A stretch of 64,000 nucleotides of DNA from Candidatus Methanomethylophilaceae archaeon (GCA_944320495.1 CALUHR010000005.1:224001-288000); one strand, 5' to 3'; shown: positions 17,638-53,132, counted from the first letter of the stretch. Notes: generated by a model not told the origin, from the letters alone. Made by a program: numbers and translations.

Positions 17638-17770
17638 TGTTCCAGCCCCCGTAACCCGTTGAAGACTGCCCTTCCGAGATTCGAACGTCCGCATGCGCGG
17701 GCACTGCCCCGGGAGGCGGGAAGTGCGCGAACCTCCGAATCCCCCTTCCGGGGCTTTCGGAGATGAAAGC

Positions 17771-25782: not shown

Positions 25783-27488
25783 TGGAGGACGTGGAGGCGT
25801 GGGAATGGCACGAGCAGCACCGTCTCGGAAGGAAGATCATCGGCGACATCTACGTCGAGGACGCCTTCGATCCCGATTCCGATGGGCCGGAGGACGACGA
25901 CATCGACTTCGAGGATGACGTCCTCGGATTCGATCCCGAAACAGCCGAGCAGCAGCAGGACGAGGTACCTGTCCCCGAGTGGATCAACTCCGCCATCGAC
26001 GTGGACAAGCTCATGTCGGACATCTTCCGCCCCGGCACCAACCACGTCACCGACGGGATGAGGGGCGGAGGCAAGACCCATCAGGCCGTCGCCTACACCG
26101 AATACATGGTGGAGGGCCGCTTCAAGGGGATGCCACGCGTCATCATGCTCACCAACATCATCTTCGTCAAGAGGGTGAGCTTCGAGGGCGACCTCGAGGA
26201 TCAGTTCGTCATGGAGGACCCGCCCGGCGTCCACCACGTCACCAGCATGGAGCAGATGTTCCGCATACAGACGAAGATGATGAGGCGCTACGGCAGGGAG
26301 GGCGTGATGTTCATGCTCGTGCTCGACGAGGCGCAGAACTTCCTGTTGGCGGACGAGTACCAGCAGGACACCTCCATCGCCTTCATCAAGTTCTACGGGA
26401 CCACCAGGAAGTTCAACACCTGCATCTGGCTCCTGACCCCTTCGATCAACAACCTCCCTCCCAGGGCCAGGAACTTCCTCGATGCGGACCCCGCCGGCTA
26501 CGTCTCCTGCCAGTGGAGGAAGAACAAGCAGCTCGCCGCCCAGTACATCGCGGCCAACCACATAGAGAACGCCGATGTCCGCGAGTTCACCACCATGAAG
26601 ATGGGTGCCAACATGGCCCCCGTCTGGTTCAGGATAACCACGACACCGTGGACGCGCCCCCTTGAGGAGTTGGGAATAGGCGAGTACGGCTACGACCATC
26701 TCGCCAACGCCGACTTCAAGGTCAGCATCGACGACAACAACCCCTTCGACTTCAAGGCGTTCATGGAGGCGACCTCGGACATGCCCTCCTACCGCATGGC
26801 GACGGTCATGCAGGAGTTCTTCGACAGGATGGACGGCAAGTCCGCCGACCCGGACGCGCCCCCCGAGGACGACCCCAAGGCCGAGAGGACGGCAGAGATC
26901 CTCAGGATGAGGGAAATCGGCCTGACCTTCGATCAGATAGAGTTCGTCACGGGGGTGGCGGCATCGACCTGCCGCTATTGGATCAACAGATACGGCTCCG
27001 CAAATCCGGCCGCACAAGCGGCCGACAGTCCCAAGGGGGCGGGGGGCGGAGACCCCGCCCAACCCAAGCGCGGGAACCGCTCTAGGAATACTCCTAGAGT
27101 GGGTTCCCGCGCGGGTAAGAAGGGGCTGAAAACACCTCCGAAAAGGCTGAAGAGGGACTCTGCTCTAGAAAAGCTAGAGTTGCTGAAAAATGACACAGCC
27201 AGATCTTTGAGCAGCAGCAACGCAACCACCCCGTTTTCGCGCCCTTATATGTATAATCCTAGAGAGGGGGAGGAGGACGGGGGGTCTCGCGGAAAGTTGC
27301 CGATTGACCCCCAACCGGTTGGCGGACGGTTGGCAGCCGAGACACCCCTAGAGGGGGAGGATTCGGCTGACCTAAACCATGATGAGGATGAATCGTTCGA
27401 CGACGGGGTATGGGGCTACGGCGAAGATGGGGGATCCGATGACGGGGAACCCTACGACGTCGGGGAGGAATACGAAGAGGCGGAGCGA
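25782..27488 (+). CDS. Zot/pleolipovirus-type P-loop ATPase with C-terminal HTH and disordered tail (CGA 27486; standard-code end 27506)
   Basis: Walker A GMRGGGKT, LTNI, Walker B MLVLDEAQ, GTTRK motif, and HTH LTFDQIEFVTGVAASTCRYW. Confidence 0.8.
27068..27112. other. Long inverted repeat within the ATPase tail region
   Basis: GCGCGGGAACCGCTCTAGGA-ATAC-TCCTAGAGTGGGTTCCCGCGC. Confidence 0.8.
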
Positions 27489-27509: not shown

Positions 27510-28610
27510 ATGAGGGATGGGAAGATGAGCAACAGCAAACGGAAGGATGACGACCCGCTCTCCTACGGGAGCGTGATGGCCGTGTGGATGGGGAAGTCCT
27601 ACCGCATCCCCGTCGATGCGGACGGATACGTGCCCATGGAGGCCCTGGTCATGCGCTATCAGCAGATGGGGAACAACGGAAGGGACAAGGGAAGGGACTC
27701 GGACATAGTGTTCCCCTCCCATGTCAGGCCGAAGGAGATCGTCAGATGGTGGGCGGACCCGTCCTCGTGCGACATCGAGGGCATCGACACCCGCGACTCC
27801 AAGGTGTACGACGTCTCCGGCCTGAAGGGAAGGCGCATGAAGGCCGCCCAGAGGAAGATCGGGATAGTCACCCCTTCCGCCGACGAACAGAGACGCATAC
27901 GCAGGATCCTCTCGGAGGCGTTCACCGCCGCCGAGCTGGACGCCATGACGAGGGAGGGGTCCTTCGTCATCCGCACCCGCCCGAACTGCGGGAGCGTGAT
28001 GGGATACTACCTCAGGAAGGCCGACGGCCAGGAGATCCCCCTCATAACCTTGGAGGAGGGCGTGTCCCCGGACACCGTCGTCCACGAGACCGTCCACCAC
28101 GCAAGGACGTGCAGGAGGTCGGGCAAGTACACCAGGACGGCGTTCCCCATGAAGGGCGGAAGGCTGGACGAGGCGTACTACGGACTGAGCCAGCAGCAGC
28201 GCGACATGATCAACGACGCCGAGGAGACGGAGACGACAGCCGAGGCGACAGCGAGGACCAAGAGGGACCCCTGCCCCACCGGGTATTGGGACAATGTCGG
28301 CGGAAGGGAGGCGTACATCCGCGACAAGACCGCCCTCGCAAGGTCGTGCGGCGGAGGGGACTGCACCCTGAAGGGGGCCAAGGCCGTCAGGACCGTGGAG
28401 AAGCAGTACGACAAGCTGGACATCGCGATGGCGTCTATCATGGCTGACGTCCCCGCGAAGGAGTCCGCCGCGAGGATCGCCAAGGGTTCCGCGTCCGGTA
28501 GGCCGAAGACGAAGACGGCAGCAACAGCGAAATCCAAGAGCCAGACTCCGAAGAAGACCACGAAGGCAAAGAGCCAGACATCCAAAACCAAGGGGAAAGG
28601 GACGAGGCGA
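27510..28610 (+). CDS. SDIxGID-family domain plus HExxH metallopeptidase-like domain and basic tail (CGA 28608; standard-code end 28658)
   Basis: WWADPSSCDIEGID, VVHETVHH and a K-rich tail ending KGKGTR. Confidence 0.7.
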
Positions 28611-30850: not shown

Positions 30851-30873
30851 TTCATAAACGGTTCCCATGACAT
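30851..30873 (+). promoter_or_regulatory. Element promoter-like motif copy 6
   Basis: TTCATAAACGGTTCCCATGACAT. Confidence 0.5.
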
Positions 30874-32621: not shown

Positions 32622-33485
32622 ATGCCCAAAAGCAACGATGCGATCCTGGCAGGGCAGTATAGGAAGCTCGACAGGACCAAGAACCGCGCCGTCCGCGACA
32701 AGCAGGCGTACGCGAGATACAACAGCAAGGCCGACAAGTACCGCTCCGGCACCGGGCACGGCATCGCCGTGTTCAGCCCCGTGTCGAAATCGGATACGTG
32801 GACCTACTCCGAGACCGGCGGCGAGACGAACGCCAACCGCAACCAGTACGGGGAGAAGGCCCCCGACAGGTCCTCCGGCATGGGCTTCGACGAGCACACC
32901 AAGATGCTCGCGAAGCAGATCGAGGCGGCCGAGAAGGACGCCAAGGACGCGAAGAAGAAGAGGAAGACGGCCAGGAGCGAGATGCTCGAGGCCCGCAACC
33001 AGCACATCGCGTACAGGATGGCCCAGGGCAAGGCCCACGGCGTCGTCGTGTACAGCACCAGGGCCAAGCCCGTCGTGGGCGAGGTCGAGGTGCCCAGCAG
33101 GCACGGTTCCTACAACCGCTACCCCGTCGACGAGGACGGGAGGATCCCCGCGAGGGAGGTCAGGAGGATCGTGGACGAGCGCGTCGGATACTCCGGCGTG
33201 GACGACGGAAGGACCGCCAGGAGGGTTTACCCGTCCAGGCCGACCCCCCAGATGATGGACGACTACCTCGCGAGGCCGAACAGGTCCGACATCGTCGGCA
33301 TCGATGCGCCGAAGGGAACCAGGCCGACGGTGGACGCGAGGACGTACAAGAAACCGAAGACCGCGTCCGCCAGCGGATCCTGCAAGGCGAAGGCCAAGGC
33401 GCCCGCGAAGTCCGCTTCTAAGAAAGCACCCGTGAAGAAGACTCCGGCCAAGTCCACCAAGGCCAAGACCTCCGGGAGGCGCTGA
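32622..33485 (+). CDS. Array gene 1, SDIxGID family, tail ...KAKTSGRR
   Basis: RPNRSDIVGIDAP motif plus tail. Confidence 0.8.
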   Translation: MPKSNDAILAGQYRKLDRTKNRAVRDKQAYARYNSKADKYRSGTGHGIAVFSPVSKSDTWTYSETGGETNANRNQYGEKAPDRSSGMGFDEHTKMLAKQIEAAEKDAKDAKKKRKTARSEMLEARNQHIAYRMAQGKAHGVVVYSTRAKPVVGEVEVPSRHGSYNRYPVDEDGRIPAREVRRIVDERVGYSGVDDGRTARRVYPSRPTPQMMDDYLARPNRSDIVGIDAPKGTRPTVDARTYKKPKTASASGSCKAKAKAPAKSASKKAPVKKTPAKSTKAKTSGRR

Positions 33486-33487
33486 CC

Positions 33488-33928
33488 ATGGTCGACTACT
33501 CCGACATCGTCGGGAACAGCATCGTGGCCAGCGTCATCCAGTCTGACCCCGACACCTTCGAGGAAGTCGTGGCCAAGGCCGTGAGGACGACATCCAGCCG
33601 CAGCCAGGCCGCATCCAAGGTCGAGGACTACGTCAACGACGTCCTCTGGGACGTCATCAACGGTATGGAGGAGTACGAGCCCATCGCCTACTCCCTCGCA
33701 TACTACGGGATGCAGTCGATGGAGTACGACGGCATCGGCGACGACATGACCCTGATCGTGGACACCTACATCAGGGAGAACGGCCCCAAGGCCGCATCCG
33801 TCAGGCGTTCCCCGAACGGCAGGTCCGCACCCAAGCCCAAGTCCGCAGCCTGCAAGCCCAAGGCCAAGGCACCCGCGAAGAGGACGCCCGCCAAGTCCGC
33901 CAAGGCCAAGACTTCCGGGAGGCGCTGA
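33488..33928 (+). CDS. Array gene 2, acidic core plus tail
   Basis: Ends KAKTSGRR. Confidence 0.8.
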   Translation: MVDYSDIVGNSIVASVIQSDPDTFEEVVAKAVRTTSSRSQAASKVEDYVNDVLWDVINGMEEYEPIAYSLAYYGMQSMEYDGIGDDMTLIVDTYIRENGPKAASVRRSPNGRSAPKPKSAACKPKAKAPAKRTPAKSAKAKTSGRR

Positions 33929-33930
33929 CA

Positions 33931-34368
33931 ATGTCCTACAACGGATACAGGAACAGCGCCACCTGGGGCGTCGCGCTGATCTTCGGCAACGACTACGGCT
34001 ACTACCAGCTGTCCAGGGAGTGGGTCGAGGCATGCGCCCGCAAGGGGATGACCAAGGCCCAGGCCAAGGGGAGGATCGCCGAGCTCATCGAGAACGAGGT
34101 CGACCACGAGTGGGACGGGGCCTACGACGCCGTCGCCCGCGTCGGGCCGATCGCGTCCCAGCTGCTCCCGTCCCTCGGGAGCATGGAGATCGACTACGGC
34201 GAGGTGGCCGACGGCATGCTCGAGGACTACTCCGACCTCAGGAAGGAGTGCGCGTCGTCCTCCGCCAGGCCGAAGGCCGGGAGCGCTGCGTGCAAGTCCA
34301 AGGCACCCGCGAGGAAGTCCCCGGCGAAGTCCTCCAAGCCGAAGTCCAAGACCGCAGGGAGGCGCTGA
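33931..34368 (+). CDS. Array gene 3, YNGxxNxxTW family
   Basis: MSYNGYRNSATW; ends KSKTAGRR. Confidence 0.8.
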   Translation: MSYNGYRNSATWGVALIFGNDYGYYQLSREWVEACARKGMTKAQAKGRIAELIENEVDHEWDGAYDAVARVGPIASQLLPSLGSMEIDYGEVADGMLEDYSDLRKECASSSARPKAGSAACKSKAPARKSPAKSSKPKSKTAGRR

Positions 34369-34369
34369 C

Positions 34370-34750
34370 ATGCTCCCTCAGACGTTCGAAGGGGAGGACG
34401 GCTTCGTCTCCGAGGTCGTCTACTACACCCTCTGCAAGAGGATCGACAGGCTCATGGACTCCCTGTACCGCAAGGGCGTGAAACCCCGCGACATGCGCAG
34501 TGACATCAGCGGGCTGATCGATTCGGAGATCGGAAAGGTGAACGCCGCCGGCATGAGGCCGGACGCCACCCTCACGGAAGCCCTGGCATACGCGATCGCC
34601 GACTGGTACTACGAGGAGAGGAACGATGTCGTCCAGTTCTGCATCGACAACTATGTCCCTCCCAGCGGTTCCAAGGCATCCAGGCCCAAGGCACCCGCCA
34701 AGAAGTCCCCGGCGAAGTCCTCCAGGCCGAAATCCAAGGGGAGGCGCTGA
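34370..34750 (+). CDS. Array gene 4
   Basis: Ends PKSKGRR. Confidence 0.8.
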   Translation: MLPQTFEGEDGFVSEVVYYTLCKRIDRLMDSLYRKGVKPRDMRSDISGLIDSEIGKVNAAGMRPDATLTEALAYAIADWYYEERNDVVQFCIDNYVPPSGSKASRPKAPAKKSPAKSSRPKSKGRR

Positions 34751-34752
34751 CC

Positions 34753-35214
34753 GTGGCCCGGAGTCCCATCCGCATAGACTACGGTCATGTGAGCGGGATG
34801 GCACTGGACATCGTCGTGGTGTACGAGCCGAAGTTCTCCGACACCCTCTGGGAGTGCGTCTCCGAGGGCATGGGCAAGGCCGACTGCATCGAGGAGCTCC
34901 GCTACTACCTCTACCACGGTGCCGAGCTCGCCGTCGGCAACACTAGGTTCGCCCCCGATCCCGACACCCCGCAGGACGAGCTCGACCTTTGCAGGAACAT
35001 CGCCCTCAGGGGCGTCGACGACTACCAGGCGAGCGGGGAGGCCGACAGGGCCGCCAGTATCCTCGTGAACGACAACTACGAGAGGTTCAGGGCAGCCGTC
35101 AGGGACCACGGGAGCGGATCCCGCAGGACCGCTCCGAGGGGCGGTGCCAGCAGGCCGAAGGCCAAGGCACCCGCCAGATCTTCCAAGCCCAAATCCAAGG
35201 GGGTGAGGAGATGA
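34753..35214 (+). CDS. Array gene 5
   Basis: GTG start; ends KPKSKGVRR. Confidence 0.75.
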   Translation: MARSPIRIDYGHVSGMALDIVVVYEPKFSDTLWECVSEGMGKADCIEELRYYLYHGAELAVGNTRFAPDPDTPQDELDLCRNIALRGVDDYQASGEADRAASILVNDNYERFRAAVRDHGSGSRRTAPRGGASRPKAKAPARSSKPKSKGVRR

Positions 35215-35645
35215 CCTACAACGGTTGGGCCAACCGCCCCACCTGGGCGATAGCCCTCTGGTTCGACAACGACGAGGGCCTGAGTTCCATGAAGGACGAA
35301 TGGATCCAGGATGCCGCCGATCAGGGGATGTCCTATGAGGAGGCCGAGGACTACGTCTGGGACCGTCTCGAGGAGTACGTTGAGGAGGAGTACGCCGAGG
35401 CATGCGACTCCGTCAACCCCATGATCGCCGACGCGCTGCTGATGTCCCCCGGAATGGCCAACATCGTCTTCTCCGAGATCGTCAGAGGGTTCCTCCGTGA
35501 CGCGGACTACAGGCCCGCGGCGTCCGGTTCCAAGAAGCGGAAGGTCGGGGGCGTTCCCAAGAGCGGTTCCAAGGCTGTCAAGCCCAAGGCGAAGACGCCC
35601 GTGAAGAAGGCGTCCAAGCCGAAGTCGAAGAGGGTCCACAGATGA
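35211..35645 (+). CDS. Array gene 6, YNGxxNxxTW family
   Basis: MTYNGWANRPTWAIALWFDND; ATGA overlap; ends KSKRVHR. Confidence 0.8.
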   Translation: MTYNGWANRPTWAIALWFDNDEGLSSMKDEWIQDAADQGMSYEEAEDYVWDRLEEYVEEEYAEACDSVNPMIADALLMSPGMANIVFSEIVRGFLRDADYRPAASGSKKRKVGGVPKSGSKAVKPKAKTPVKKASKPKSKRVHR

Positions 35646-35998
35646 CCCGCTATCGCACGCCCGACGGCGACGTCATCGACGAGGGCGACCTCGAGGACGC
35701 AATCTACGCCGCATTCACCGAGGACGACTTCAGACGCTGGCTGGACTCGAACTACTCTGGGTTCGACTATGACAGGTACCACATCCCCGCGTCCGAGGTC
35801 CTGGACGTCATGGGAGAGTTCGACTACAAGTACCGCGAGACGGTGGACTCCATCGTCTCCGACTACGGGTCCGACTATCCGTCACTGGAGGACCTTGGAT
35901 TCGAGGAGCTCGACGACGATGACGATGAGTCCCACTCCAAGAGGCCGAAGGCCCGTCCCAAGACCTCCAAGCCCAAGTCCAAGGGGGTGAGGAGATGA
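35642..35998 (+). CDS. Array gene 7, very acidic core
   Basis: 31 D/E in the first 98 aa; the 20-aa tail has 10 K/R and no D/E. Confidence 0.8.
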   Translation: MTRYRTPDGDVIDEGDLEDAIYAAFTEDDFRRWLDSNYSGFDYDRYHIPASEVLDVMGEFDYKYRETVDSIVSDYGSDYPSLEDLGFEELDDDDDESHSKRPKARPKTSKPKSKGVRR

Positions 35999-36540
35999 TG
36001 TGGACCTATGAGGATAGGGACGGCGTCATCCGCGTCGCCGACGAGCAGGAGATCCTCTACAAGGTGACGCCCGACGCGGCCTTCGCCAAGTACCTGGACA
36101 ACGAGTTCTCCGAGATCGACATCCTAGACCGCACCTACGAGCCGTCGGAGGTGTTCATCGAATGGTCCGAGGATGACTTCGCCAGGGCTGCCTCCGAGTG
36201 GTTCAACGACGCCATCTTCCACCCGACCGAGAGGGACCTCTCCTACTTCGAGGAAATCGGAGTCTTCCCCGCGACCGAGGAGGACATCCGCAACGAGAAG
36301 GTGGACAGGGGCATCGACAGGGTCGGCAAGAGGTCCGCGGGACTACAGAACGCCCTCGGAAAGAGGGGTTCCGGCACCGCCAGGCCGAAAGCCGGCGGCA
36401 GGATGACCATCAGGCCGAGGGCGAAGCCGAAGACTCCCGTGAAGAAAGCGTCCAAGGCGAAGTCCGCGTCCAAGACCGCCAAACCGAAGACTCCCGTGAA
36501 GAAGACGTCCAAGCCCAGATCCAAGGGGGCCCGCAGATGA
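35995..36540 (+). CDS. Array gene 8
   Basis: Acidic core and a long tail ending RSKGARR. Confidence 0.8.
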   Translation: MMWTYEDRDGVIRVADEQEILYKVTPDAAFAKYLDNEFSEIDILDRTYEPSEVFIEWSEDDFARAASEWFNDAIFHPTERDLSYFEEIGVFPATEEDIRNEKVDRGIDRVGKRSAGLQNALGKRGSGTARPKAGGRMTIRPRAKPKTPVKKASKAKSASKTAKPKTPVKKTSKPRSKGARR

Positions 36541-36935
36541 CCGGCTCCGACTGGGCCAACTACGAGACGTGGCTCGTCCACGTCCACATGTTCAACGAAG
36601 AGTCCGTGCGGAAGGAGTTCCGCTCCGCCCTCGAGAAGAGGGCCAAGGAGGGGCTGGACCGCCGCACGGTCCGTGACATCGTCACGCATGATGTCCAGGC
36701 TTTCGTGGAGGAGACCGCCGAGGAGGCGTCCCGGCGCGTCCGCAACCCCATGATAGCCGATTTCATCGGATCCTTCCCGGGACGCATAGACTGCTCCCAG
36801 ATTGCCGACTCGTGGATGGAGGTCTACGACGGCATCGCCGCGGAGCAGGTGACATCCAGGTCCCCTTCCAAAGGGACCGCTCGCAACACACCGACGAGGA
36901 AGGGACAGAGGTCCCGCGCCCAGAGGTCGAGACGA
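36537..36935 (+). CDS. Array gene 9, NYETW family (ends at CGA 36933; standard-code end 36989)
   Basis: DWANYETWLVHVHMFNEE; the CGA lies just before the next gene's GGAGGTG RBS. Confidence 0.75.
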
Positions 36936-36955
36936 TCGAGGGGAGGTGTTTCTGA

Positions 36956-38125
36956 ATGGTTTACAACGGAAGATCGAAAGGAAAGATGAAATCGAGAGGA
37001 ATGGGAACGAAAGCCGGGAGGAGGCCTCCCGCATCCCGGTCGCTGAAGGCGGTCGTCACGCCCGACGTGTCGCCGGAGAGCCCCTTCGACGGCATGTCGA
37101 TGTTCGGTTCCCTTCTGATATGCGATCCGAGCGTCGGCAATACCCGCAACTACGTGTCCTTCGAGGATCTGGACGAGTTCTGCAACGCGAAGTTCGACAT
37201 AGACAGGTTCTACGATGAGGTCTACACCAGGAGCGAGAGGGACGTCGCCACATACATCCGTATGTACGGCGCACTGGCCGTGGAGGTCCGCGGCGCACTC
37301 ATCATCGCGGGCCACGAGCAGATCGTCCGCGAGTACGGCTACGACAACGCCGATTCGAGGGCGAAGGCCCTGGACCTCCTGAGAAACGAGGCCGAGATCT
37401 ACATGCAGTGGGCCGACGGGGACGTCTGGCAGGCCATCGTCTATGACGACCACACCGACGACGAGTCCGTCCCGGACAGAGTCGTCATCAGGTACGATCC
37501 CTGGGACGACGACGAGGACGGCGATATCGTGGACTCCCTGGGCGAACTGTACGGACAGGAGTACGCCGAGCAGGAAGCTAAGCGCATGATCGTCGACGAG
37601 AGGGAATCCCGCGGGCAGACCCCGAACTTCGCCAAGGGTTCGGCGTCGAGGAAGGCTCCAAAGAGCCGTTCCGCGTACAGTGCGAAGGGACGCCCTTCCG
37701 TCGGCCAGTATGACAGGGCGAGATACGCCAGGGCCACGAGCGGCGGACACTCGATTCTCAGGGTCTACTACGATCCGGGCGAGTCCGAGATGATGGGACG
37801 CCCCGTCTACGACGTGGTTGCCCGCAAGGCCGGCATCCCCGGGCTTATCTGGGGCAAGGACTACGACCCCGCCTCCGGCCTCTGGAGCGGAGGGGACTAC
37901 GACATCACGAGGGAGAAGCTCGAGAGACACGCGATGGGACATGACCTCATCCGCGAGTACGGGCAGATTCCCGCGGACGCGTTCGGGAGGTCCAAGGGCA
38001 TGAGCCAGACGTCCAGACCGAAGTCTAAGCCGAAGGTTCCCGCATCCAAGGCTGCCAAGCCGAAGTCCAAGGCGCCAGCGAAGAAGCCCGTCGCCAAACC
38101 CAAGGCGGAGGGGGGACGCAGATGA
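36956..38125 (+). CDS. Array gene 10, multi-domain
   Basis: Basic N-terminus, acidic domains; ends KAEGGRR. Confidence 0.8.
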   Translation: MVYNGRSKGKMKSRGMGTKAGRRPPASRSLKAVVTPDVSPESPFDGMSMFGSLLICDPSVGNTRNYVSFEDLDEFCNAKFDIDRFYDEVYTRSERDVATYIRMYGALAVEVRGALIIAGHEQIVREYGYDNADSRAKALDLLRNEAEIYMQWADGDVWQAIVYDDHTDDESVPDRVVIRYDPWDDDEDGDIVDSLGELYGQEYAEQEAKRMIVDERESRGQTPNFAKGSASRKAPKSRSAYSAKGRPSVGQYDRARYARATSGGHSILRVYYDPGESEMMGRPVYDVVARKAGIPGLIWGKDYDPASGLWSGGDYDITREKLERHAMGHDLIREYGQIPADAFGRSKGMSQTSRPKSKPKVPASKAAKPKSKAPAKKPVAKPKAEGGRR

Positions 38126-38562
38126 CCCTCCGCGACGAAGCCCCGCTGACCTTCGAGTTCGGCAACAACACCTGGCTCACCTGGGAGTACTACCGCGACA
38201 ACGAAGCCCTCTCCGAGTCCTGGACGGAGGAATGCGCCCGGGAGGGACTGACCCGCACCCAGGCCGTCGAGAGGATCGTCGGGAACATCAGGGACGATCT
38301 CGCCGACGCCTTCAGGGACGGCGTGTTCAGTACGCAGAACCCGGCGACTTCCGCGGTCCTGCTCCAGGACCCCGATCTCATGGACATCGACTACAGGCAG
38401 GTCGCCGTACGCATCGTCCATGCGTTCTGGCCCGAGGGGTCCGCATCCCCGAGAAGGGCGTCCAAGCCGAAGGCACCCGCGTCCAAGGCGAACAAGCCGA
38501 AGGCCAAGGCACCCTCCAAGAGGCCCACAACCAAACCCAAGTCCAAGGGGGGACGCAGATGA
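38122..38562 (+). CDS. Array gene 11, paralog of gene 3
   Basis: ECAREGLTRTQAVERI vs ACARKGMTKAQAKGRI; ends KSKGGRR. Confidence 0.8.
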   Translation: MTLRDEAPLTFEFGNNTWLTWEYYRDNEALSESWTEECAREGLTRTQAVERIVGNIRDDLADAFRDGVFSTQNPATSAVLLQDPDLMDIDYRQVAVRIVHAFWPEGSASPRRASKPKAPASKANKPKAKAPSKRPTTKPKSKGGRR

Positions 38563-39368
38563 AGGGCAGGACCGCAACCAGGTCCCCGTCCAAGCGCTCC
38601 GTCATCTACCCGGTCAGGGACGCGCCCTGCCCGGTCAGGACGACAGCGGGTTCCGACATCACGGACGACGTGATCCTGTTCCGCCGCAAGGGCAGGCAGG
38701 GGGACCCCGCCGCGTATCTCACGGACGACGGACGCTCCCTCATCGACCTCGTGGCCGCCAAGGCCGGCCCCGATGCCGCGGGAGGGTTCGCATCCCACAG
38801 GTTCCGCTCCGACGACACCATGACGAGGGCGCTCAGGGAGCTCGGCATATCCAACGAGGTCGTGGACGAAGGCATCCTGGCATCGGCTAGGGGCATCTAC
38901 GGCTACGAGTCCTACGACTACAGGATGTGGTCCAACGGCCACACCGGATACCGCGTCGCCCATGTGGAGGACCCCTCCGACGACACGGGCAGGAACCTCA
39001 TCGTGGACGACGAGTCGAAGATCCCTGGCAGGGTCATCTCGAAGGGGAACCGCATCTACTACAACGAGAGCAAGGCGGAGCTCCACGGTGCCGAGTTCGG
39101 CAGGGACAACGCCCCGAAGAGGGACTGGAGGTTCAGCCTGGCGTTCCGCGGGGATACCAGCGGGCTCACGGTCGAGGAAGTCTCCAGGCTCGGCTACGAC
39201 GGGCGCGACATGGAGGTCGGCGACGAGATGTCCGTCGGCCCCCTCGTGATCAGGAGAGTCAAGGGCGACGCCATGGACTACGTCTCGAGGTCTGGCTCGC
39301 CGAGATCGAAGGCCAAGGCGCCCGCCAAGAAGGCATCCAAACCCAAGTCCAAGGGGGTGAGGAGATGA
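38559..39368 (+). CDS. Array gene 12
   Basis: Paralog of gene 13 (RSPSKRSVIYP, DDPSDDTGR-like, NAPKRDWRF); ends KSKGVRR. Confidence 0.8.
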   Translation: MKGRTATRSPSKRSVIYPVRDAPCPVRTTAGSDITDDVILFRRKGRQGDPAAYLTDDGRSLIDLVAAKAGPDAAGGFASHRFRSDDTMTRALRELGISNEVVDEGILASARGIYGYESYDYRMWSNGHTGYRVAHVEDPSDDTGRNLIVDDESKIPGRVISKGNRIYYNESKAELHGAEFGRDNAPKRDWRFSLAFRGDTSGLTVEEVSRLGYDGRDMEVGDEMSVGPLVIRRVKGDAMDYVSRSGSPRSKAKAPAKKASKPKSKGVRR

Positions 39369-40222
39369 ACGGCAAGGCACCGAGATCCCCATCCAAGCGT
39401 TCCGTCATATATCCGGCGAAGAACGCGACCTGCCCCGTAAGGACCAAGGCGGGAAAGGACCCCGCGGCCAACTCGACACTCTACCGCTTCAGGGGCGACG
39501 TCGTCGGGGACCCGAACGCATACGTCACCGACGACGGGAAGACTCTCGTGGATCTCGTCGGAGCTGTGGCGGGTCAGAAGGATGCCGAGGAGTTCTCCGG
39601 ACACAGGTATCGCACCATCGACGCGCTTCTGGACCGTCTCGGGGGATTCGACATCTATGCGACTCGCTGCTCGGACCTCTCGATAGTCGCCGGGAGATAC
39701 AGCATAGTGTACGACGAGGCCAAGGATTATGACCGCTGGCTCGACGGCGACGTGTTCCGTGTCGCCGAGGTCGACGACCCGTCCGACGATACCGGCAGAA
39801 CCCTCTACGTCGATGATGTGTCTCAGATCCCCGGGCGTATAATCCGCAAGAGGCACGGTGTGTACTCTTACGAGGACGCACAGCACACGGCGGCGGAATT
39901 CGGCATGGAGAATGCCCCGAAGAGGGACTGGAGATTCTATGTCGGTCAGAGGCCTGGTGACAACTCCATCGGCTACGATGATGCGGTCAGACTCGGCTAC
40001 GACGGTCGTGACATGAAGGTCGGCGATTATATGGAGGTCGGGCCTCTCATAATCCAGAGGGTCGATGGCCATCTGTCGGGCTATTTCGCCCCGGACTCCG
40101 ACGGCTCCAAACCGATAACCAGGAGGACGGTCGGGCCGAAGGCTGGGACATCCGGCAAGGTACCAACCAAGACTCTCGCATCCAAAGCCACCAAGCCCAA
40201 GTCCAAGGGGGTGAGGAGATGA
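39365..40222 (+). CDS. Array gene 13
   Basis: Tandem paralog of gene 12; ends KSKGVRR. Confidence 0.8.
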   Translation: MNGKAPRSPSKRSVIYPAKNATCPVRTKAGKDPAANSTLYRFRGDVVGDPNAYVTDDGKTLVDLVGAVAGQKDAEEFSGHRYRTIDALLDRLGGFDIYATRCSDLSIVAGRYSIVYDEAKDYDRWLDGDVFRVAEVDDPSDDTGRTLYVDDVSQIPGRIIRKRHGVYSYEDAQHTAAEFGMENAPKRDWRFYVGQRPGDNSIGYDDAVRLGYDGRDMKVGDYMEVGPLIIQRVDGHLSGYFAPDSDGSKPITRRTVGPKAGTSGKVPTKTLASKATKPKSKGVRR

Positions 40223-40605
40223 GCGTCAGCGCGTTCGTCCACACGTACTTCATCAGATACCTGGAAGAGAAGGGCGTGGACATCTACGACTACGCCATGG
40301 AGCTGGCGGAGAGCGGCAGGGACTACTGGGACTGCGAGGAGGTGTTCGCGGACTACATCGAGCGTCTCGCCATCGAGTTCCAGTACGATGCGGCGGACTA
40401 CGCCGAGTCGGACATCACCACGATGCTCGTCGAGGACTGCCTCCTCAGGGAGGTCGTGGACTTCGACCTGTTCTTCGACAGGGACGGCAGCCCGCTGAAG
40501 GGCAGGTCCGGTTCCCGCAGGCCCGCGTCCAAGGCAACCGGGCCCAAGGCCAAGGCATCTGCCAAGAAACCCTCCAAGCCCAAGTCCAAGGGGGTGAGGA
40601 GATGA
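40219..40605 (+). CDS. Array gene 14
   Basis: Paralog of gene 16 (ADYIERLAIEFQ vs ADYIGRLAVEFQ). Confidence 0.8.
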   Translation: MSVSAFVHTYFIRYLEEKGVDIYDYAMELAESGRDYWDCEEVFADYIERLAIEFQYDAADYAESDITTMLVEDCLLREVVDFDLFFDRDGSPLKGRSGSRRPASKATGPKAKASAKKPSKPKSKGVRR

Positions 40606-41207
40606 CCGGGTACGGCTGGGAGTTCCCGGACGGAACCGTCATCCCCGTCGAGGACGGTTCCGCCGTCGAGGACAAACTCCTCTCGATGGACTCCTTCTGG
40701 GACAGGAACAGGAAGGACTGCCTCCGCCAGGGGCTGTTCTACCAGTGGTACTGCGACGAGATCGGGCGCGACATCGAGAACATGTCCGAGAGGGAGCTCT
40801 ACGACCACTTCGGCGTCAGATGCTCCGAGGACAGGGACGGGAAGGTCGTCTACGTCCTGCCCGAGGGTGACAGGACCGATGCGAGGGGACTCTTCGAGTG
40901 GATCGAGGAAGAGGGCTACCGCTACGACGAGTGGCTGGAGTTCAACTCCGACTGCTACGACTTCAAGGAGCTGGTGAAGAACGAGGCCGAGTATCTGACC
41001 TCCGACTACGGCAACGAGGAGTCCATGGGGTACTACGGCGTCAGGCTGGTACCGATGTCCTCCGGATCCAAGAGGCCGTCCAAGCCGAAGGCGAGGACTC
41101 AGGCGAGGAAACCCGTCTCGAAGTCCGCGTCCAAGGCATCCAAGCCCAAGGCCAAGGCTCCCGCGAGGAAAGCATCCAAGCCCAAGGCGAAGGGGGTGAG
41201 GAGATGA
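40602..41207 (+). CDS. Array gene 15
   Basis: Acidic, aromatic-rich core; ends KAKGVRR. Confidence 0.8.
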   Translation: MTGYGWEFPDGTVIPVEDGSAVEDKLLSMDSFWDRNRKDCLRQGLFYQWYCDEIGRDIENMSERELYDHFGVRCSEDRDGKVVYVLPEGDRTDARGLFEWIEEEGYRYDEWLEFNSDCYDFKELVKNEAEYLTSDYGNEESMGYYGVRLVPMSSGSKRPSKPKARTQARKPVSKSASKASKPKAKAPARKASKPKAKGVRR

Positions 41208-41596
41208 CCGCCGACGTGTTCGTCGCCCGCGCCTTCCTCAAGTACCTGGATGGGAGACGGGAGAGACACGATCTCTACGCCCTGAAGCTGGCCGACAGCG
41301 GCAGGACCGAACGGGAATGCGAGGACGCGTACGCCGACTATATCGGACGTCTCGCCGTCGAGTTCCAGCGGAGTGCGGTGAATGACGTCGATCCGGACGT
41401 CACGGAGCAGCTCGTCGAGGACTTCGACTTCCATGAGTTCGTGGACACGGGCTACTACTTCGAGTTCGACGGGACCCCGCGCGACAGGTTCGGCACCCGC
41501 AGGGCCGGGTCCGCGTCCAAGGCATCCAGGCCGAAGGCCAAGGCTCCCGCGAAGAAGCCCGCATCCAAGCCCAGGTCCAAGGGGGCGAGGAGATGA
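41204..41596 (+). CDS. Array gene 16
   Basis: Paralog of gene 14; ends RSKGARR. Confidence 0.8.
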   Translation: MTADVFVARAFLKYLDGRRERHDLYALKLADSGRTERECEDAYADYIGRLAVEFQRSAVNDVDPDVTEQLVEDFDFHEFVDTGYYFEFDGTPRDRFGTRRAGSASKASRPKAKAPAKKPASKPRSKGARR

Positions 41597-42903
41597 CCGC
41601 ACCCAGGCGCAGAGCATCCTCGAGGTCCGCCCGCTACGCGGGGGACCTCCCCAAGAGGATCCGCGACCACCCGTACCTGTCCGTCCCGGGAGGCGTCCTC
41701 CGCCTCCCCGACGGGACAAGGGTGTACGCCGAGTCGGACATCGAGCTCCTCGATGGCCAGGACGAGGGTCTCGTCTACTTCTGGACGGACGCGGTCGACG
41801 AGGAGGGCGGATACTACGGCATCGCGTTCTCCTTCGAACTCGACGAGCTCATGAGGACCCCCTGGAACAAGGTGGACTGGCAGGGACACATCGACGACGT
41901 GACCTACGAGCCGCCCGAGAGCGGTTCCAAAAAGCCCAGATCCAAGACCAAAGTCTCAAAGAGGCCCGTCTCCAAGTCCTCCAAGCCCCGCGTCTTCACC
42001 GTGGCCGATTGGGACGCGGGGAGGATCGGGGAGATGAGGCCCGGCGACGGGCTCGACAGGGAGCTGTACGACGGACTCCGCTGGAACGGCTACCCCTACC
42101 CCGCCGACCCCCGCGTCCTGGCGGCCAACGGTTGCATCCGCGGGTACTGTCTGGGGAAGGTCAGCGATAGGGGCAACTACACCTACGGCGAGACCCCCGA
42201 CGGGAGATACGTCTACCTCGGTCTCTCGATCCCGCTGGACGAGACGCCCTACACCATGGCCCTGTCCAACCCGAACAGCCTCGATTCCCGCTACGACGCC
42301 CGCGTCGCCGCGAAGGAGGTCGAGGCCGAGGAGAGACGCCAGAGGGAGTGGGCCAAGGATCCCCGCTCCAAGTACGTCGATGTGGACGAGTGCAGGATCT
42401 ACGGGGCCGTCGAGACGTTCGACGACCTCGTGGAATACTACACGCTCTTCAACCCGGAGTATGCGGAGCGTCTCCGCGACCCCGAGGTCGTTGGGTATCT
42501 GAGGGACTACTACGCCCACATGGACTGGGTGAGCCACGGGAACGGACCCAGCTACGACGAGGACGTGGACGGGGAGACGATGCTCAGCCATCTGTACGAC
42601 CTCACCGAGGAGGCCGAGTCGTTCCAGACGGAGTTCATGGAGGACGAGTACGAGAACGGCGACACCGACATGCTGGACTTCCTCAGACGCCGTGCGGCGA
42701 TCCAGAGGAGGTACGGAGTCGAACCAGACTGGAAGGATTCTTCCAGTGGTTCCAGGAAGGGCAAGACACCCTCCAAGGCGTCCAAGCCCAAGGCACCTGT
42801 CAGGAAGGCCGCCCCCAAGGCGGCCTCCAAGACCACCAAGCCGAAAGCGAAGACTCCCGCCAAGAGGCCCGCCGCCAAGCCCAAGACAAAGGGGGCGAGG
42901 CGA
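41593..42903 (+). CDS. Array gene 17, fused cassettes (ends at CGA 42901; standard-code end 43023)
   Basis: Internal tail remnant near aa 112-135 plus a terminal tail; CGATG junction. Confidence 0.75.
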
Positions 42904-43523
42904 TGGGCACGTCCAACTACGCCCACGACACCAGCTTCCTCGTATGGGCCTTCGAGTACGAGCCCGACGAGGACTGGTACCGCGAGGAGTTCCCCGACGA
43001 GTCCGACGACTCGATCCACCTGATGATGGCCGAGGACCGCGACATGGAGTACAGGCAGGTCGAGAAGGCCGTCCAGCCCATGCTGGACCGCCTCAACTCC
43101 GATCTCCTGTTCCACAGACTGGGTATCCGCTCCGGGTACTACGACGGCATCCAGGTCTATGTCGACGAGCCGTCCCAGGACAGGTGGCTGGTGCCGGAGC
43201 TCCGCGATGCCTGGGAGGAGATGTACGGCGAGGACTCCGTCCCCGACGACACCAGACTCCTCGGCGTCTACGCCGACGAGCGCACCCGCATCAGGAAGTG
43301 GCTGAGGGACAACCTGCCCCGGCTCGGGTTCCATGCCCTGAGGTACACCTCTCCGTGGACGATCGAGCGCGTGGAGAATCCCAGCAGGAGGGCGTCCAAG
43401 CCGAAGGCGAAGAACCCCGCAAAGAGGTCCAGGCCGAAGGAATCGTCCAAGACGGTCAAACCGAAGACTAAGCCCAAGAACCAAGAGAAGAACTCTGGAA
43501 CTAAGTCCAGAAAGAGGTTCCGA
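42903..43523 (+). CDS. Array gene 18 (ends at CGA 43521; standard-code end 43568)
   Basis: MGTSNY start, acidic core, basic tail and CGAcATG junction. Confidence 0.75.
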
Positions 43524-43524
43524 C

Positions 43525-44466
43525 ATGTCCAAACGCGAGCGTGGCGGTGTCGGAAAGAGACCTGGTAGAAGGTCGTATCATCAACCAGGACAGCCCAGAT
43601 ACCCCGTCAGGAGGTCCCCAGAAGAATTCAAAGAGATGGGTTCCAAAGTCTCCAAGATTGGCAGAATCGAAAAAAGAAGATCGATCTGGGCCATAGACGA
43701 TTCAGGAACTGCTGATTTTACCGAAGGTGCGAGTGAATACCTGACGTTGACGGCAGTGACGATGCTGAACGAATCGGATTTCAGGAAGATGTTCTCTAAC
43801 ATCACACTGTATGATGGGGAGATAAAATTCAATCTCCTGAGATTGGAACATCCCGACGAATGTCTCACTGCCATGAAGCGCATCGGCAGCAGTACGGCCT
43901 TCATCGCTTGCTACCCTCGCTTCAAGGATTTTTCCAATCCCCAGGATCGTCGTCTGTTCTTCTTGGAATCCCTACAGAAACTCATCGATTCTATCATGCG
44001 GATCGATCGTTCGAGTCTTGTCCTGATAGGTGTGGATGAGAACAACTACCTGTTGTCCTCTGACTACTACGAACTATGCAGTCCCAGATGCCTGGTATTC
44101 CCTATCGACTCGAAGGATTCTCTCCTTTTGCAGACAGCGGACATGGCCACGAGTAGCTTGGGCCATGCCCTGCTTCCCGCGAATAGGGGGACATCCGCAT
44201 ATTTCGATGAAATCAGAGACAGAACGATGAATGTACACGGGAAGCCCGGCGTAAGCACACAGCAAACACCAAGGGGCTTCAACCGTGACGATATAGAATC
44301 GACCACAGAAGTTAAAAAGGTTGGTGGGTCCAAATCATCCAAATCCCGTTCTACGAAGGTTGTTCGTGGAAAGGATGGAAGATTCGTATCCTCTAACCCC
44401 TCCAAGCAGAAATCAACCCAGAAAAATGAGTCGAAGGCATCCAAGCCCAAGGGGGTCCGCAGATGA
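43525..44466 (+). CDS. Array gene 19, DUF3800-like protein with acquired tail
   Basis: AIDDSG...S.LLQTAD pattern, AT-richer codons; ends KPKGVRR. Confidence 0.65.
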   Translation: MSKRERGGVGKRPGRRSYHQPGQPRYPVRRSPEEFKEMGSKVSKIGRIEKRRSIWAIDDSGTADFTEGASEYLTLTAVTMLNESDFRKMFSNITLYDGEIKFNLLRLEHPDECLTAMKRIGSSTAFIACYPRFKDFSNPQDRRLFFLESLQKLIDSIMRIDRSSLVLIGVDENNYLLSSDYYELCSPRCLVFPIDSKDSLLLQTADMATSSLGHALLPANRGTSAYFDEIRDRTMNVHGKPGVSTQQTPRGFNRDDIESTTEVKKVGGSKSSKSRSTKVVRGKDGRFVSSNPSKQKSTQKNESKASKPKGVRR

Positions 44467-44863
44467 CCCTTATATCCCCAGCCACTGATGTTGGCGATGC
44501 GGTCGCGGAAACACCTCGCAGTAGGGAACGTGGCGGCTCCCACGCGACTGCACCTCTTGTTTCAGATTGTGAAGATAGAAACGGACGCCCGCTCCCGGTT
44601 GTGGGCACAGTTCTCCCACAGTGTCGGGTGCGTCGTCCCCAGTGGTCCCAAGGTGTCACCCCCAGGTTGCCGCCTGCAAGGATCGATGCGGCTGAAGGTA
44701 TTTCAACCCATTCCCGCACCATCAACCGTACGTCCGTCCTCCGTGGACTGGCGCTGAACATTCTCTCGCACATCGCGGGGACCTCTGGGTCCCCCACAAA
44801 CCCCAACAAGGATGGGAATCCGATGAAAATGTACAGCGCAATCAGTGGAACGGGGGTCTCCGC

Positions 44864-45526
44864 ATGACCCTCTGGAACGTCTATCTGCCCCACGGCAACT
44901 TCGCCGAGAGGATGGCCGTCGAGGCCCCGAACGAGAGGGAGGCATTGGAGGCCGTCGCGGAGAAGCTCCGCGGGACCGTCTTCGTCATCGACTATGACGA
45001 GTGGGACGCCAGATTCCAGGACTACATCGCGGACGGGTACTCCGCCGACGAGGCGGAGAACATACTGGACGAGATGTACCTGCCGGTGGACGGCGGGTAC
45101 TACCTGGACATCACGGGCGTCACCATCGAGGAGGCCCGCGACACCGGCTCCGACGGCAGGGTCGACGCCGTCAAGCTGGCCTACGATCTCGCCGACTTCG
45201 GCGAGGAGACGGACCACTACGAGTTCTGGGACAACTACAACACCATGGAGGACGCCGTCACCCAGCTCACCCAGTCCCTGGGAACCCTCGCGGGCTCCAG
45301 GGCGATCCGCGACGACATCGCGGAGAGGATGGCCGAAGGATTCGCCACCTATGGCGAGGACGAGAAGGCCAGGGGCCTCATATCCAGGCTCGACAGGCAC
45401 ATCAGATCCTTCGGCAGCGGTTCCGGGAGGCCGAAGGCCGGGAGGCCCGTCTCCAAGGCGTCCAAACCGAAGGCCAAGGCACCCGCCAGATCCTCCAAGC
45501 CGAAAGCCAAGGGAGGACGCAGATGA
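44864..45526 (+). CDS. Array gene 20, acidic core
   Basis: Ends KAKGGRR. Confidence 0.8.
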   Translation: MTLWNVYLPHGNFAERMAVEAPNEREALEAVAEKLRGTVFVIDYDEWDARFQDYIADGYSADEAENILDEMYLPVDGGYYLDITGVTIEEARDTGSDGRVDAVKLAYDLADFGEETDHYEFWDNYNTMEDAVTQLTQSLGTLAGSRAIRDDIAERMAEGFATYGEDEKARGLISRLDRHIRSFGSGSGRPKAGRPVSKASKPKAKAPARSSKPKAKGGRR

Positions 45527-45954
45527 ACTCGTACATCGACGCGGGGCAGATCGCCGAACACCTGAGGTACGAGCGCGACAGGGGGAGGCTCGAAGCCTTC
45601 CTCGATAGATCCGTGGATCTCGACGGCATCCTCATCAAGACGAGGGAGACGTCGAGGGGTGGCAGGGTCGTGTCCGAGCGCGTCATCGAGATGACGCTGC
45701 CGATCCGCTGGGCCGATCTCGGGGCCACCTTCGTCCTCAGGCCCCTCGCGCCCAACCACGTCGCCATGTACCCCGAGTCGGACCCCGAAGACCCTGTGTA
45801 TTCGACGGTGGCGAATGACGTCTGGAGATGGCTCCTGGACAGATACCGCGAATCCGCCGCCGGACACGGCGTGGACATCGATGCCTACGGGACCGTCATC
45901 ACGGCTTCCCTGAGGCCGGCATCCAAACCCAAGTTCAAGGGGGCGAGGAGATGA
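45523..45954 (+). CDS. Array gene 21
   Basis: ATGA overlap; short tail ASKPKFKGARR. Confidence 0.75.
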   Translation: MNSYIDAGQIAEHLRYERDRGRLEAFLDRSVDLDGILIKTRETSRGGRVVSERVIEMTLPIRWADLGATFVLRPLAPNHVAMYPESDPEDPVYSTVANDVWRWLLDRYRESAAGHGVDIDAYGTVITASLRPASKPKFKGARR

Positions 45955-46286
45955 GCGCGCGCATCAACGACCCGCTCGGGTTCGCCAACGGCGTGATGCC
46001 CAGGAACCCTCCCCAGGCTTACCGTGCGGTGATCATGCGTCCCGACGGCAGCGTCAGCATCACCCATGAGTTCCCCCGCGGATTCCTCGAGCAGGTAGTC
46101 ATCCCGGACGCCCTTGCCCAGGTTCCGGGCGGAAGGCTCTTGGAGATAATCCGCGACGAGGATAAGGAGGCCTGGATAAGGGCGCACACCAAGCCCAGGT
46201 CCGCGTCCAAGGCGTCCAGGCCGAAGGCCAAACCTCCGGCGAAGAAACCCGCGTCCAAACCCCGTTCCAAGGGGGCGGTACGCTGA
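45951..46286 (+). CDS. Array gene 22
   Basis: ATGA overlap; ends RSKGAVR. Confidence 0.75.
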   Translation: MSARINDPLGFANGVMPRNPPQAYRAVIMRPDGSVSITHEFPRGFLEQVVIPDALAQVPGGRLLEIIRDEDKEAWIRAHTKPRSASKASRPKAKPPAKKPASKPRSKGAVR

Positions 46287-46327
46287 ACACCAAGCCGGAG
46301 AGGAAGGTCTGGACATCCCCCGACGGG

Positions 46328-53006: not shown

Positions 53007-53132
53007 GATTACCTACATTTGTTATTATATTAAATACATTTGTAATTAGAATCTGCCGAAGTATAAGCACAAATGTCATTAAAATAATGACAAATGTAAC
53101 TATTAAATATGGCACAGCCGAATCCGTAGGGC

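Follow-up and report, generated by a model that had tools for sequence, protein, structure and literature searches.

In work of 2005, which is cited in PMC8406263, Vergunst is said to have described positively charged C-terminal signals of type IV secretion system (T4SS) substrates. VirD4 and EccC read C-terminal signals of their substrates, the prohead protease of phage T4 removes targeting sequences, and lysine repeats of the sort described below bind DNA. The T4SS of an F plasmid moves plasmid-encoded DNA-binding and anti-SOS proteins into recipients (PMC8406263). The locus described here is an array of 22 co-oriented genes (g1 to g22, + strand) at positions 32622-46286 of a stretch of 64,000 nucleotides, hereafter the window, from Candidatus Methanomethylophilaceae archaeon (GCA_944320495.1 CALUHR010000005.1:224001-288000). 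The array is part of an integrated element of about 37 kb (window ~17000-54300) of this gut methanogen, which belongs to the family Methanomethylophilaceae. A first-pass annotation of the window had described the array as unrelated proteins sharing a basic C-terminal tag, which it took for a sorting signal and also for a possible point of cassette exchange.

Twenty of the 22 products carry a tail, which is mostly 22-54 residues long and contains 10-19 lysines and arginines (K + R). The tails are free of acidic and large hydrophobic residues, with the exception of g10, which has one Glu four residues from the end. When pooled (765 residues), they consist of 24% K, 13% R, 16% A, 16% S and 13% P, with 0% D and 0.4% E; K + R amount to 285 and S/TPx[KR] motifs to 12. 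The consensus of the tail alignment is ASKPKAKAPAKKxSKPKSKG[VAG]RR, and a recurrent SGS[KR] linker starts many of the tails. The tag had been assigned to the array as a whole, which needs correction for g21, with a short basic end only, and for g18, with an aberrant tail. The GxRR end of the tail corresponds to the Shine-Dalgarno sequence GGGGGTGAGGAG plus ATGA in the upstream frame, so that the junction sequence agrees with the earlier remark that the final GVRR is partly the ribosome-binding site and start-stop overlap.

The unstructured, positively charged C-terminal 20-50 residues that mark T4SS substrates are also predicted for the array type of tail, and the tail of the HExxH gene product upstream of the array has a predicted local distance difference test (pLDDT) score below 60 in its AlphaFold2 model. 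The tails likewise form a K/A/P/S-rich C-terminal region with S/TPxK motifs, as in linker histones. The winged-helix domain of linker histones (Pfam Linker_histone) was not matched by any of the 22 array proteins.

Within the genome, the tail is confined to the element, and its concentration in the array is far beyond chance. Matches of the tail profile over the 1.77-Mb genome were confined to the array, and a composition filter applied to its 16,662 six-frame open reading frames (ORFs) returned 13 array tails and one unrelated ORF. In a sliding-window search for H1-like stretches, the only hit outside the element was located at the C-terminal end of a protein of 805 aa on contig C10 (G000:C10:14311-16728; L125:2311-4725). 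This protein is topoisomerase I by Pfam and its C-terminal stretch is rich in Lys/Ala/Pro/Thr. Related tails had also been claimed for four element genes outside the array. A true tail was found for the HExxH gene at 27510, while the genes at 47382, 48425 and 49677 have short Arg/Lys-rich ends only.

Genes were re-called with TGA, TAA and CGA as stops. Thirteen of the array junctions are ATGA overlaps and four consist of TGA, 1-2 nt and a start codon. The remaining ones are one CGATG overlap, one CGA-C-ATG, one 20-nt gap and one 397-nt gap. In-frame CGA occurs at 36933-36935 (g9), 42901-42903 (g17) and 43521-43523 (g18), and also ends the genes of the ATPase (27486-27488) and the HExxH protein (28608-28610). 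With the standard code, the CGA-ended genes would read through into the region of the next gene. The CGA of g17 shares its A with the following ATG, that of g18 is separated from the next ATG by a single C, and that of g9 lies 20 nt before g10. Since CGA ends restore the junction logic seen with TGA, there is independent, local support for CGA as a stop codon, and the genome appears to use it as such. The TGA ends initially assumed for g9, g17 and g18 were replaced by the in-frame CGA. The tyrosine integrase gene of the element contains one in-frame TAG, in line with a genome in which TAG is read as sense (pyrrolysine).

Most of the array cores are acidic, with isoelectric points (pI) of 4.1-4.9. 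Their description as unrelated proteins is roughly right, with about 16 families instead of 22: g3, g6, g9 and g11 are DUF7249-like, and g12/g13 as well as g14/g16 are paralogs. The scores for DUF7249 (PF23907, Pfam gathering threshold 27 bits) are 32.8 for g3 and 41.2 for g6, which pass, and 20.9 for g9, which is below the threshold. Apart from these and the DUF3800 core of g19, the cores yielded no match in Pfam or PHROGs.

Codon alignment of the tails provides a means to determine whether the peptide or the DNA is conserved. Within the array and upstream of the codons of the ribosome-binding site, the proportion of synonymous differences (pS) is 0.52 compared to 0.24 for nonsynonymous differences (pN), in an alignment that was built at the protein level and hence biases pN downward. 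Third codon positions vary most (0.42, compared to 0.19 for second positions), and the synonymous AAG/AAA, CCC/CCG and TCC/TCG variation noted earlier is visible in the alignment. In the last six alignment columns, pN/pS increases to 0.74, in keeping with the presence of a ribosome-binding site. Comparison with L121, a variant with 95% identity, yielded ratios of nonsynonymous to synonymous substitution rates (dN/dS) of 0.20 for the cores and 0.61 for the tails. The same tails show zero frameshifts or stops, and 7 of the 23 replacements are K/R swaps. The orthologs in L118 are 61-80% identical in the cores and 48-60% in the tails, the latter with many indels.

The lysine frame is kept in all tails over 22-54 codons, though two other frames are available. 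Tails are also present on the HExxH gene, g19 and g22, though these are uncoupled to any following gene. As a control, the 177 ATGA junctions elsewhere in the genome were analysed, for which the mean number of K + R in the last 20 residues is 2.6, compared to 8.8 in the array. This genome-wide control rules out that ATGA coupling demands a Lys-rich tail. Selection on the peptide is indicated most strongly by the basic, disordered character, which is kept across differing sequences, G + C contents and codon usage, as seen in the tails of relatives. Together with the conserved frame and the excess of pS over pN, this supports the earlier proposal that selection acts on the peptide and not on the DNA repeat alone; conservation at the DNA level only, with tolerated frameshifts, was not seen. 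By these codon comparisons, the tail is selected as a peptide, with charge and disorder selected more than the exact sequence.

Close variants of the element differ by whole cassettes. Over 10.3 kb, L123 and the window share 99.99% identity. The variant var1 (L122 + L124), at 98.7% identity over the first 11.6 kb, nonetheless shows whole-unit differences; further ones were found in L121 (Table 1). In these variants with 95-98.7% identical backbones, 6 of 7 breakpoints are located in tails, although these account for just 17% of the array. Every new cassette in var1 and L121 is tailed. Tails are more alike within than between elements, with the best partner residing in the own element in 46 of 70 cases compared to 12.6 expected, and exact repeats of 27-35 nt are common to the junctions of g7, g12, g13 and g14. 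More distant arrays differ in both content and order: core homologs of 9 of the 22 genes are present in the sequenced part of the L118 array and of 7 of the 22 in G115, and the order of g7 and g8 is inverted in L118 relative to the window. Fixed gene content was thus not seen, and the suggestion that the repeats act as recombination points is borne out. As judged from the variants, the tail-coding DNA is the recombination site of the cassettes.

Homologs of g1 are the first genes of the arrays in L118, G115, G119, G117 and G128, and g10 is the cassette shared most widely among the compared arrays. A protein identical to that of g12 is present in two other assemblies, and in L118 the ortholog of g9 has a CGA stop as well and the same odd tail. 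In g17, an internal fossil tail at about residues 120-150 (SGSKKPRSKTKVSKRPVSKSSKPRV; repeat D8 at 41961-41987) precedes a second domain, and the gene looks like two cassettes that were fused once their junction was lost. g19 has a G + C content at third codon positions of 0.57, compared to 0.76-0.96 in the other array genes, and a C-terminus of ...SKASKPKGVRR. It appears to be a recent foreign capture with the common tail already attached.

Among the 173 other species genomes of the host family, 45 have a homolog of the element ATPase, and the element family is also present in 63 metagenome contigs from gut, rumen and fermenter. Searches of IMG/VR with the single ATPase protein and with a profile yielded no close relatives, and tblastn with the ATPase against INPHARED (phages) and PLSDB (plasmids) gave no match. 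Pipelines for the detection of viruses and plasmids seem to overlook the element family. A metagenome scan with the alignment of g1 gave no match.

The idea of tracing the tail itself with a profile was not successful, as no match at 1e-4 was obtained in the 173 other genomes of the family. This is explained by a profile that is too element-specific; related tails were found by composition only. Basic-tail arrays of coupled genes recur downstream of the same ATPase-HExxH pair in G115 (about 17 tailed genes, tail ...SSNSCRSKSAPKSKSTKPKTKGARR), G128 (several tailed genes, Gly/Lys/Ser/Asn-rich), G117 (three tailed genes), L118 (tail SAPKSGSCRSK...KGARR), L119 (tail SNAPKGKAPAKKQPKK..GKGRR), L086 (9-10 tailed genes, tails QPRKANGQFAKKP...SKSKGARR, with an ATPase of just 32% identity), L101 (four tailed genes) and L062 (three tailed genes, G + C content 0.46). 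The tails of these arrays differ in sequence, G + C content (0.46-0.64) and codon usage, yet stay basic. Most other elements of the family have zero or one tailed gene. Among the database homologs of the HExxH protein, 29 of 29 with at least 49% identity have basic tails of 30-60 aa with very divergent sequences, whereas homologs with identities of 48% or less end directly after the domain and are untailed. The trait is confined to one family of mobile elements, which is built on an ATPase of predicted translocase type.

A second C-terminal feature, the motif PR[KD]xxG[RQ]F[AV], is located 7-27 aa before the C-terminal end in accessory proteins of at least 9 elements, including var1, L118 and L119, and near the N-terminus in some relatives. 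It is absent from host ORFs. The motif profile matched 18 times in 15 genomes of the family, and about half of the matches are no more than 5 kb from the ATPase locus. Copies are found at L086:11480-12927, L050:4984-6172, L118:19423-19476, L119:17210-17263 and L122:15879-15932, while the sole copy in the window, in g19 (~44360-44400), is degenerate.

The ATPase is the hallmark of the element family. It shows a weak Pfam match to Zot and the ASCE P-loop fold with Walker A and B of translocating or packaging ATPases, and the GxGK[TS] and LDEAQN motifs are invariant among 22 homologs. Its AlphaFold2 model has a pLDDT of 87. The best Foldseek match is the genome-packaging ATPase B204 of Sulfolobus turreted icosahedral virus (STIV; E 3.7e-5, target TM-score 0.53), followed by EccC, HerA and FtsK, with similarity at the fold level only. 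Based on these matches of the model, the ATPase is assigned to the FtsK/HerA-type translocases. An assignment of the element to the pleolipoviruses is not supported, as the ATPase profile gave only a generic P-loop match to VP8 of Halorubrum pleomorphic virus 1 (HRPV-1) with an hhalign probability of 0.6%. The ATPase and the spike-like protein had no match among PDB sequences, and ESM Atlas look-ups of the C-terminal half of the spike and of a conserved, possibly capsid-like protein of 423 aa were uninformative.

The C-terminal end of the ATPase is strongly acidic in the window (27200-27488) and in the homologs of L118, L027, L029 and L062. Among the 44 loci with enough flanking sequence for this comparison, arrays with at least two tailed genes occur only where the C-terminal extension of the ATPase is at least 100 aa long, with L030 as the sole exception. 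The link between extension and arrays is a lead provided by sequence comparison. The model of the adjacent HExxH zincin has a pLDDT of 85 with a disordered tail. In fold comparisons it came closest to the Pro-Pro endopeptidase PPEP-3 (Z 8.4, Foldseek E 0.01), a similarity at the general zincin level only. Pfam and PHROGs scans of the larger ORFs of the element yielded no match to VirB4, VirD4, TraG or a relaxase, though small or divergent components could escape such scans; the Zot-annotated protein was the sole ATPase recognised, and no capsid, prohead protease, secretion-apparatus or particle gene was recognised in them.

The features of the element and the differences between variants are listed in Table 1. 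No repeat matching the tRNA-Asp at 16303-16376 was found at the other end of the element. A motif of about 50 nt is present in five copies, 16-240 nt upstream of the first genes of gene blocks (17693, 22913, 28888, 31137 and 51256), and is probably a common promoter or operator of the element. The region between the HExxH gene and the array (28650-32600) is a variable slot for toxin-antitoxin or defence-like genes, which is occupied by Fic/Doc in the window and by a nucleotidyltransferase/HEPN pair and a SocA_Panacea gene in L119 (L119:11890-13322). The products of g1 and of the genes at 47382 and 49677 have a domain with the signature WWxxPxRSDIxG[IV]D after ...IPVxxDGYVP..., which is also present at the N-terminus of the HExxH protein. 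No other module is reused as often in the element family.

Table 1 Features of the integrated element (window positions) and cassette differences in close variants
Feature	Position	Strand	Length (aa)	Remarks
Surface/adhesin-like protein	17693..20956	+	1087	C-terminal membrane anchor; left end of element
Several small membrane proteins				Follow the surface-protein gene in element order
Conserved genes	22913, 23850, 25118, 25486
P-loop ATPase	25782..27488	+	568	Hallmark of element family; C-terminal helix-turn-helix; strongly acidic end; CGA stop
HExxH zincin	27510..28610	+	366	Basic tail of array type, outside array; CGA stop
Fic/Doc gene	31137-31640			Between HExxH gene and array
g1	32622..33485	+	287	First array gene; basic core with GHG repeat and ...RSDIVGIDAP domain; 45-aa tail
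g2	33488..33928	+	146	Acidic core, pI 4.1; 49-aa tail; homologs in G115, L119
g3	33931..34368	+	145	DUF7249 core; 39-aa tail
g4	34370..34750	+	126	Acidic core; 31-aa tail; no homolog among other arrays compared
g5	34753..35214	+	153	GTG start; acidic core; 35-aa tail
g6	35211..35645	+	144	DUF7249 core; 44-aa tail; copy at 95% identity in L121
g7	35642..35998	+	118	Very acidic core; 22-aa tail; homologs in L118, G115
g8	35995..36540	+	181	Acidic core; 42-aa tail with internal duplication
g9	36537..36935	+	132	Weak DUF7249 match; atypical Arg-rich tail; CGA stop
g10	36956..38125	+	389	Tail ~40 aa; homologs in L118, G115, L119, L086
g11	38122..38562	+	146	Core with distant similarity to g3; 41-aa tail
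g12	38559..39368	+	269	28-aa tail; paralog of g13
g13	39365..40222	+	285	Short tail, insertion point of a cassette in var1
g14	40219..40605	+	128	Acidic core; 35-aa tail; paralog of g16
g15	40602..41207	+	201	Acidic core; 49-aa tail
g16	41204..41596	+	130	Acidic core; 34-aa tail
g17	41593..42903	+	436	Apparent two-unit fusion; 54-aa terminal tail, insertion point in var1; CGA stop
g18	42903..43523	+	206	Aberrant basic end; CGA stop
g19	43525..44466	+	313	DUF3800 core (Pfam PF12686); 11-aa tail
g20	44864..45526	+	220	Acidic core; 37-aa tail, insertion point in var1; 397-nt gap upstream
g21	45523..45954	+	143	Short basic end only; chimeric g21/g22 end in var1
g22	45951..46286	+	111	35-aa tail; final array gene; absent from var1
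Lar-like gene	46328			Adjoins array
Three genes with short basic ends	47382, 48425, 49677
Nucleotidyltransferase gene				Between gene 49677 and integrase in element order
Tyrosine integrase	53109..54158	+		Pfam Phage_integrase, 3.3e-11; right end of element
~50-nt motif, five copies	17612-17661, 22777-22826, 28823-28872, 30848-30897, 51171-51220			Core TTCATAAACGGTTCCCATC
WWxxPxRSDIxG[IV]D domain sites	33100-33330, 27600-27800, 47800-48050, 49677-49920
var1, extra cassette	40175/40185		174	Within g13 tail
var1, extra cassette	42867/42881		359	Within g17 tail
var1, extra cassette	45446-45489		186	Duplicated g20 tail on flanks
var1, loss of g22	Between 45945 and 46248			Chimeric g21/g22 tail remains
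var1, single difference in g19-g20 gap
L121, extra cassette	34294-34372		143	Duplicated g3 tail on flanks
L121, other core replaces g2 core				Join within g2 tail, tail kept

To explain these findings, we tentatively favour, at a probability of about 0.45, that the array is an accessory region in which the tail serves both as a recombination repeat and as an address label of proteins that accompany the element DNA. The array would be the variable accessory region of the ~37-kb integrated element. Each unit encodes a folded, usually acidic protein with a disordered polycationic tail and closes with a Shine-Dalgarno sequence and an ATGA junction. As the variants show, tail-coding sequence (60-100 nt) and junction together form a direct repeat, within which homologous recombination inserts, deletes and replaces cassettes. 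After any exchange within this repeat, the incoming core is still fused in frame to a tail, and coupling to the following gene is retained. As a common address label, the tail may act by non-specific binding of nucleic acid or by docking on the acidic C-terminus of the FtsK/HerA-type ATPase. In this way, accessory proteins of varying composition, among them putative anti-defence proteins (DUF7249, DUF3800 and the zincin), would remain with the element DNA, be carried along at packaging or export and act immediately in the next host. We infer binding of nucleic acid from the H1-like and topoisomerase-tail-like composition and from the known DNA binding of lysine repeats; docking on the ATPase may occur alternatively or additionally. 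Support for transport comes from the match of the ATPase model to packaging and translocating ATPases, the acidic ATPase end, the co-occurrence of extension and arrays and the recurring PR[KD]xxG[RQ]F motif. A role in sorting or loading is also compatible with the modelled ATPase fold and the predicted disorder of the tails.

Going further, the tail could be a portable loading tag of a novel archaeal system for the delivery of protein plus DNA. Any protein that gained the tail by recombination at the tail-coding repeat would be recognised via the acidic extension of the ATPase and/or via the element DNA and exported along with the genome to the next methanogen, and the array would be a self-updating anti-defence arsenal. 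We regard this extended version as doubtful.

Several points weigh against an address label. The fast evolution of the tails (dN/dS 0.61) suits a weak compositional constraint as well as a specific signal. Capsid, particle and secretion apparatus were not identified in the element, and the absence of the family from IMG/VR, INPHARED and PLSDB casts doubt on particle formation. A single copy of each tail neutralises less than 0.5% of the charge of the element DNA, so the tails are not bulk DNA condensers. The link between ATPase extension and arrays amounts to about two clades on the ATPase tree with 3-4 independent contrasts, which are too few for a test. The role of DUF7249, DUF3800 and the zincin as anti-defence proteins is a guess from the family names.

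The tail might also be a tether to DNA or the nucleoid inside the carrying or receiving cell, without packaging or transfer. Accessory proteins concentrated on DNA in this way could, for example, inhibit DNA-scanning defence enzymes, serve them as decoys or provide a chromatin-like coat in a host without histones. We consider this rather unlikely. It fits the H1-like composition with its 12 S/TPx[KR] motifs, topoisomerase I being the only host protein with such a stretch, and the lack of recognised particle genes in the scans of the element. A role in coating DNA within the cell would fit a host family that is reported to be without known histones and nucleoid proteins (PMC10673518). A tether leaves unexplained, however, why the trait tracks an element family with a translocase-type ATPase and why PR[KD]xxG[RQ]F is conserved in distant relatives. 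Alternatively, the tail might be a secretion or loading signal that is read directly by a receptor, for example the acidic extension of the ATPase, much as VirD4 or EccC read their substrates, with DNA binding being incidental. For such a signal speak the fold match of the ATPase to EccC, FtsK and HerA, its acidic end, the co-occurrence of arrays with the extension, the conserved short motif near C-termini and the element-specific signatures of the tails. Gene conversion between repeats accounts for these signatures just as well, though, and the ATPase of L086 is without an acidic end despite 9 tailed genes. The independent contrasts are also too few, and a channel or pore component was not identified. 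We consider a directly read signal unlikely.

We judge it highly improbable that the tail has no role as a peptide and is a by-product of junction DNA selected for recombination and as an A-rich, unstructured leader for re-initiation. The constraint on the last 5-6 codons as ribosome-binding site and ATGA (pN/pS 0.74), the exact junction repeats of 27-35 nt and the cassette breakpoints within tails are in line with this explanation. It is contradicted by the 177 other ATGA junctions of the genome without basic tails, by the tails on uncoupled genes, by the lysine frame kept over 22-54 codons despite two alternatives and by the K/R swaps (7 of 23 tail replacements). Basic tails also persist in elements with G + C contents of 0.46-0.64 and unrelated tail sequences. 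Least credence is given to the tail as a handle for processing or degradation, with the HExxH zincin or a protease of the host timing the activity of tailed proteins by clipping or destroying them. A zincin adjoining the ATPase is conserved in every element, its fold is nearest to Pro-Pro endopeptidases, the tails are Pro-rich and many of them open with the SGS[KR] linker. Yet the fold match is at the general zincin level only (see above), the zincin is equally conserved in elements without tailed genes and is itself tailed, and a conserved cleavage site is not evident.

If the tail is indeed an address label, the element would be the first archaeal mobile element found to tag proteins, in a large and exchangeable set, for delivery together with its DNA, and also a rare example of signal-coding DNA that is used as the recombination site renewing the cargo. 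At least 16 uncharacterised families would then become candidates for anti-defence or host-takeover factors in gut methanogens, and a simple sequence rule would be available for finding further such families. The element family is common (45/173) yet missing from virus and plasmid collections, so that its biology matters for how genes move among the methane-producing archaea of the gut. Regardless of what the tail does, the strain comparisons provide a clean natural example of cassette exchange within a coding low-complexity repeat.

Compared to substrates of the T4SS (Agrobacterium VirB/D4, Bartonella BID with basic tail, co-transfer by the F-plasmid pED208), the array likewise features diverse, unrelated mobile-element proteins with a disordered, positively charged C-terminus. 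The transported sets in these systems also include DNA-binding and anti-host proteins, and a translocase of the FtsK/HerA superfamily is involved. The element differs in that VirB4, VirD4 and a relaxase were not detected and in its archaeal host. The array tails are longer and rich in Lys/Pro/Ala/Ser rather than Arg-spaced, and the array consists of coupled cassettes bounded by signal-coding DNA. With the C-terminal domain of histone H1 (SPKK type), actinobacterial topoisomerase I, HupB/MDP1 and Chlamydia Hc1, the tails share the K/A/P/S composition, S/TPxK motifs and predicted disorder, and the topoisomerase I of the host itself has a similar C-terminal stretch. In contrast to these proteins, the array is without the globular domain of H1, and its tail is found on about 16 families of mostly acidic accessory proteins. 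Literature searches on DUF7249 and on lysine-rich packaged tails returned nothing relevant.

The capsid-targeting sequences of T4 internal proteins and the anti-restriction proteins of virions (T4 IPI*, P1 DarA/DarB) are alike in idea, as a shared peptide addresses anti-defence proteins into the particle. In T4, however, the signal comprises about 10 aa at the N-terminus, which the prohead protease removes, whereas that of the array is C-terminal with 22-54 aa and is not known to be cleaved. Integron cassettes and the orphan C-terminal modules of Rhs/CdiA resemble the array as exchangeable modules with a conserved recombination boundary whose content differs in close strains. An inverted-repeat scan of 32600-46300 revealed no attC-like boundary hairpins; the boundaries are direct coding repeats. 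Unlike in integrons, no integron integrase adjoins the array, and the only integrase of the element is located 7 kb away at the element end. The array boundary is furthermore a coding C-terminal tail with a site of translational coupling, and each cassette is a complete gene. As a T4SS, a cleaved N-terminal signal, the globular domain of H1 and attC were not found, the array is not matched as a member of any of these families. Taken together, we regard the array as a variation on a familiar theme, in which the cargo of a mobile element bears common tails for targeting or tethering. It is unusual in that the signal-coding DNA doubles as the cassette junction.

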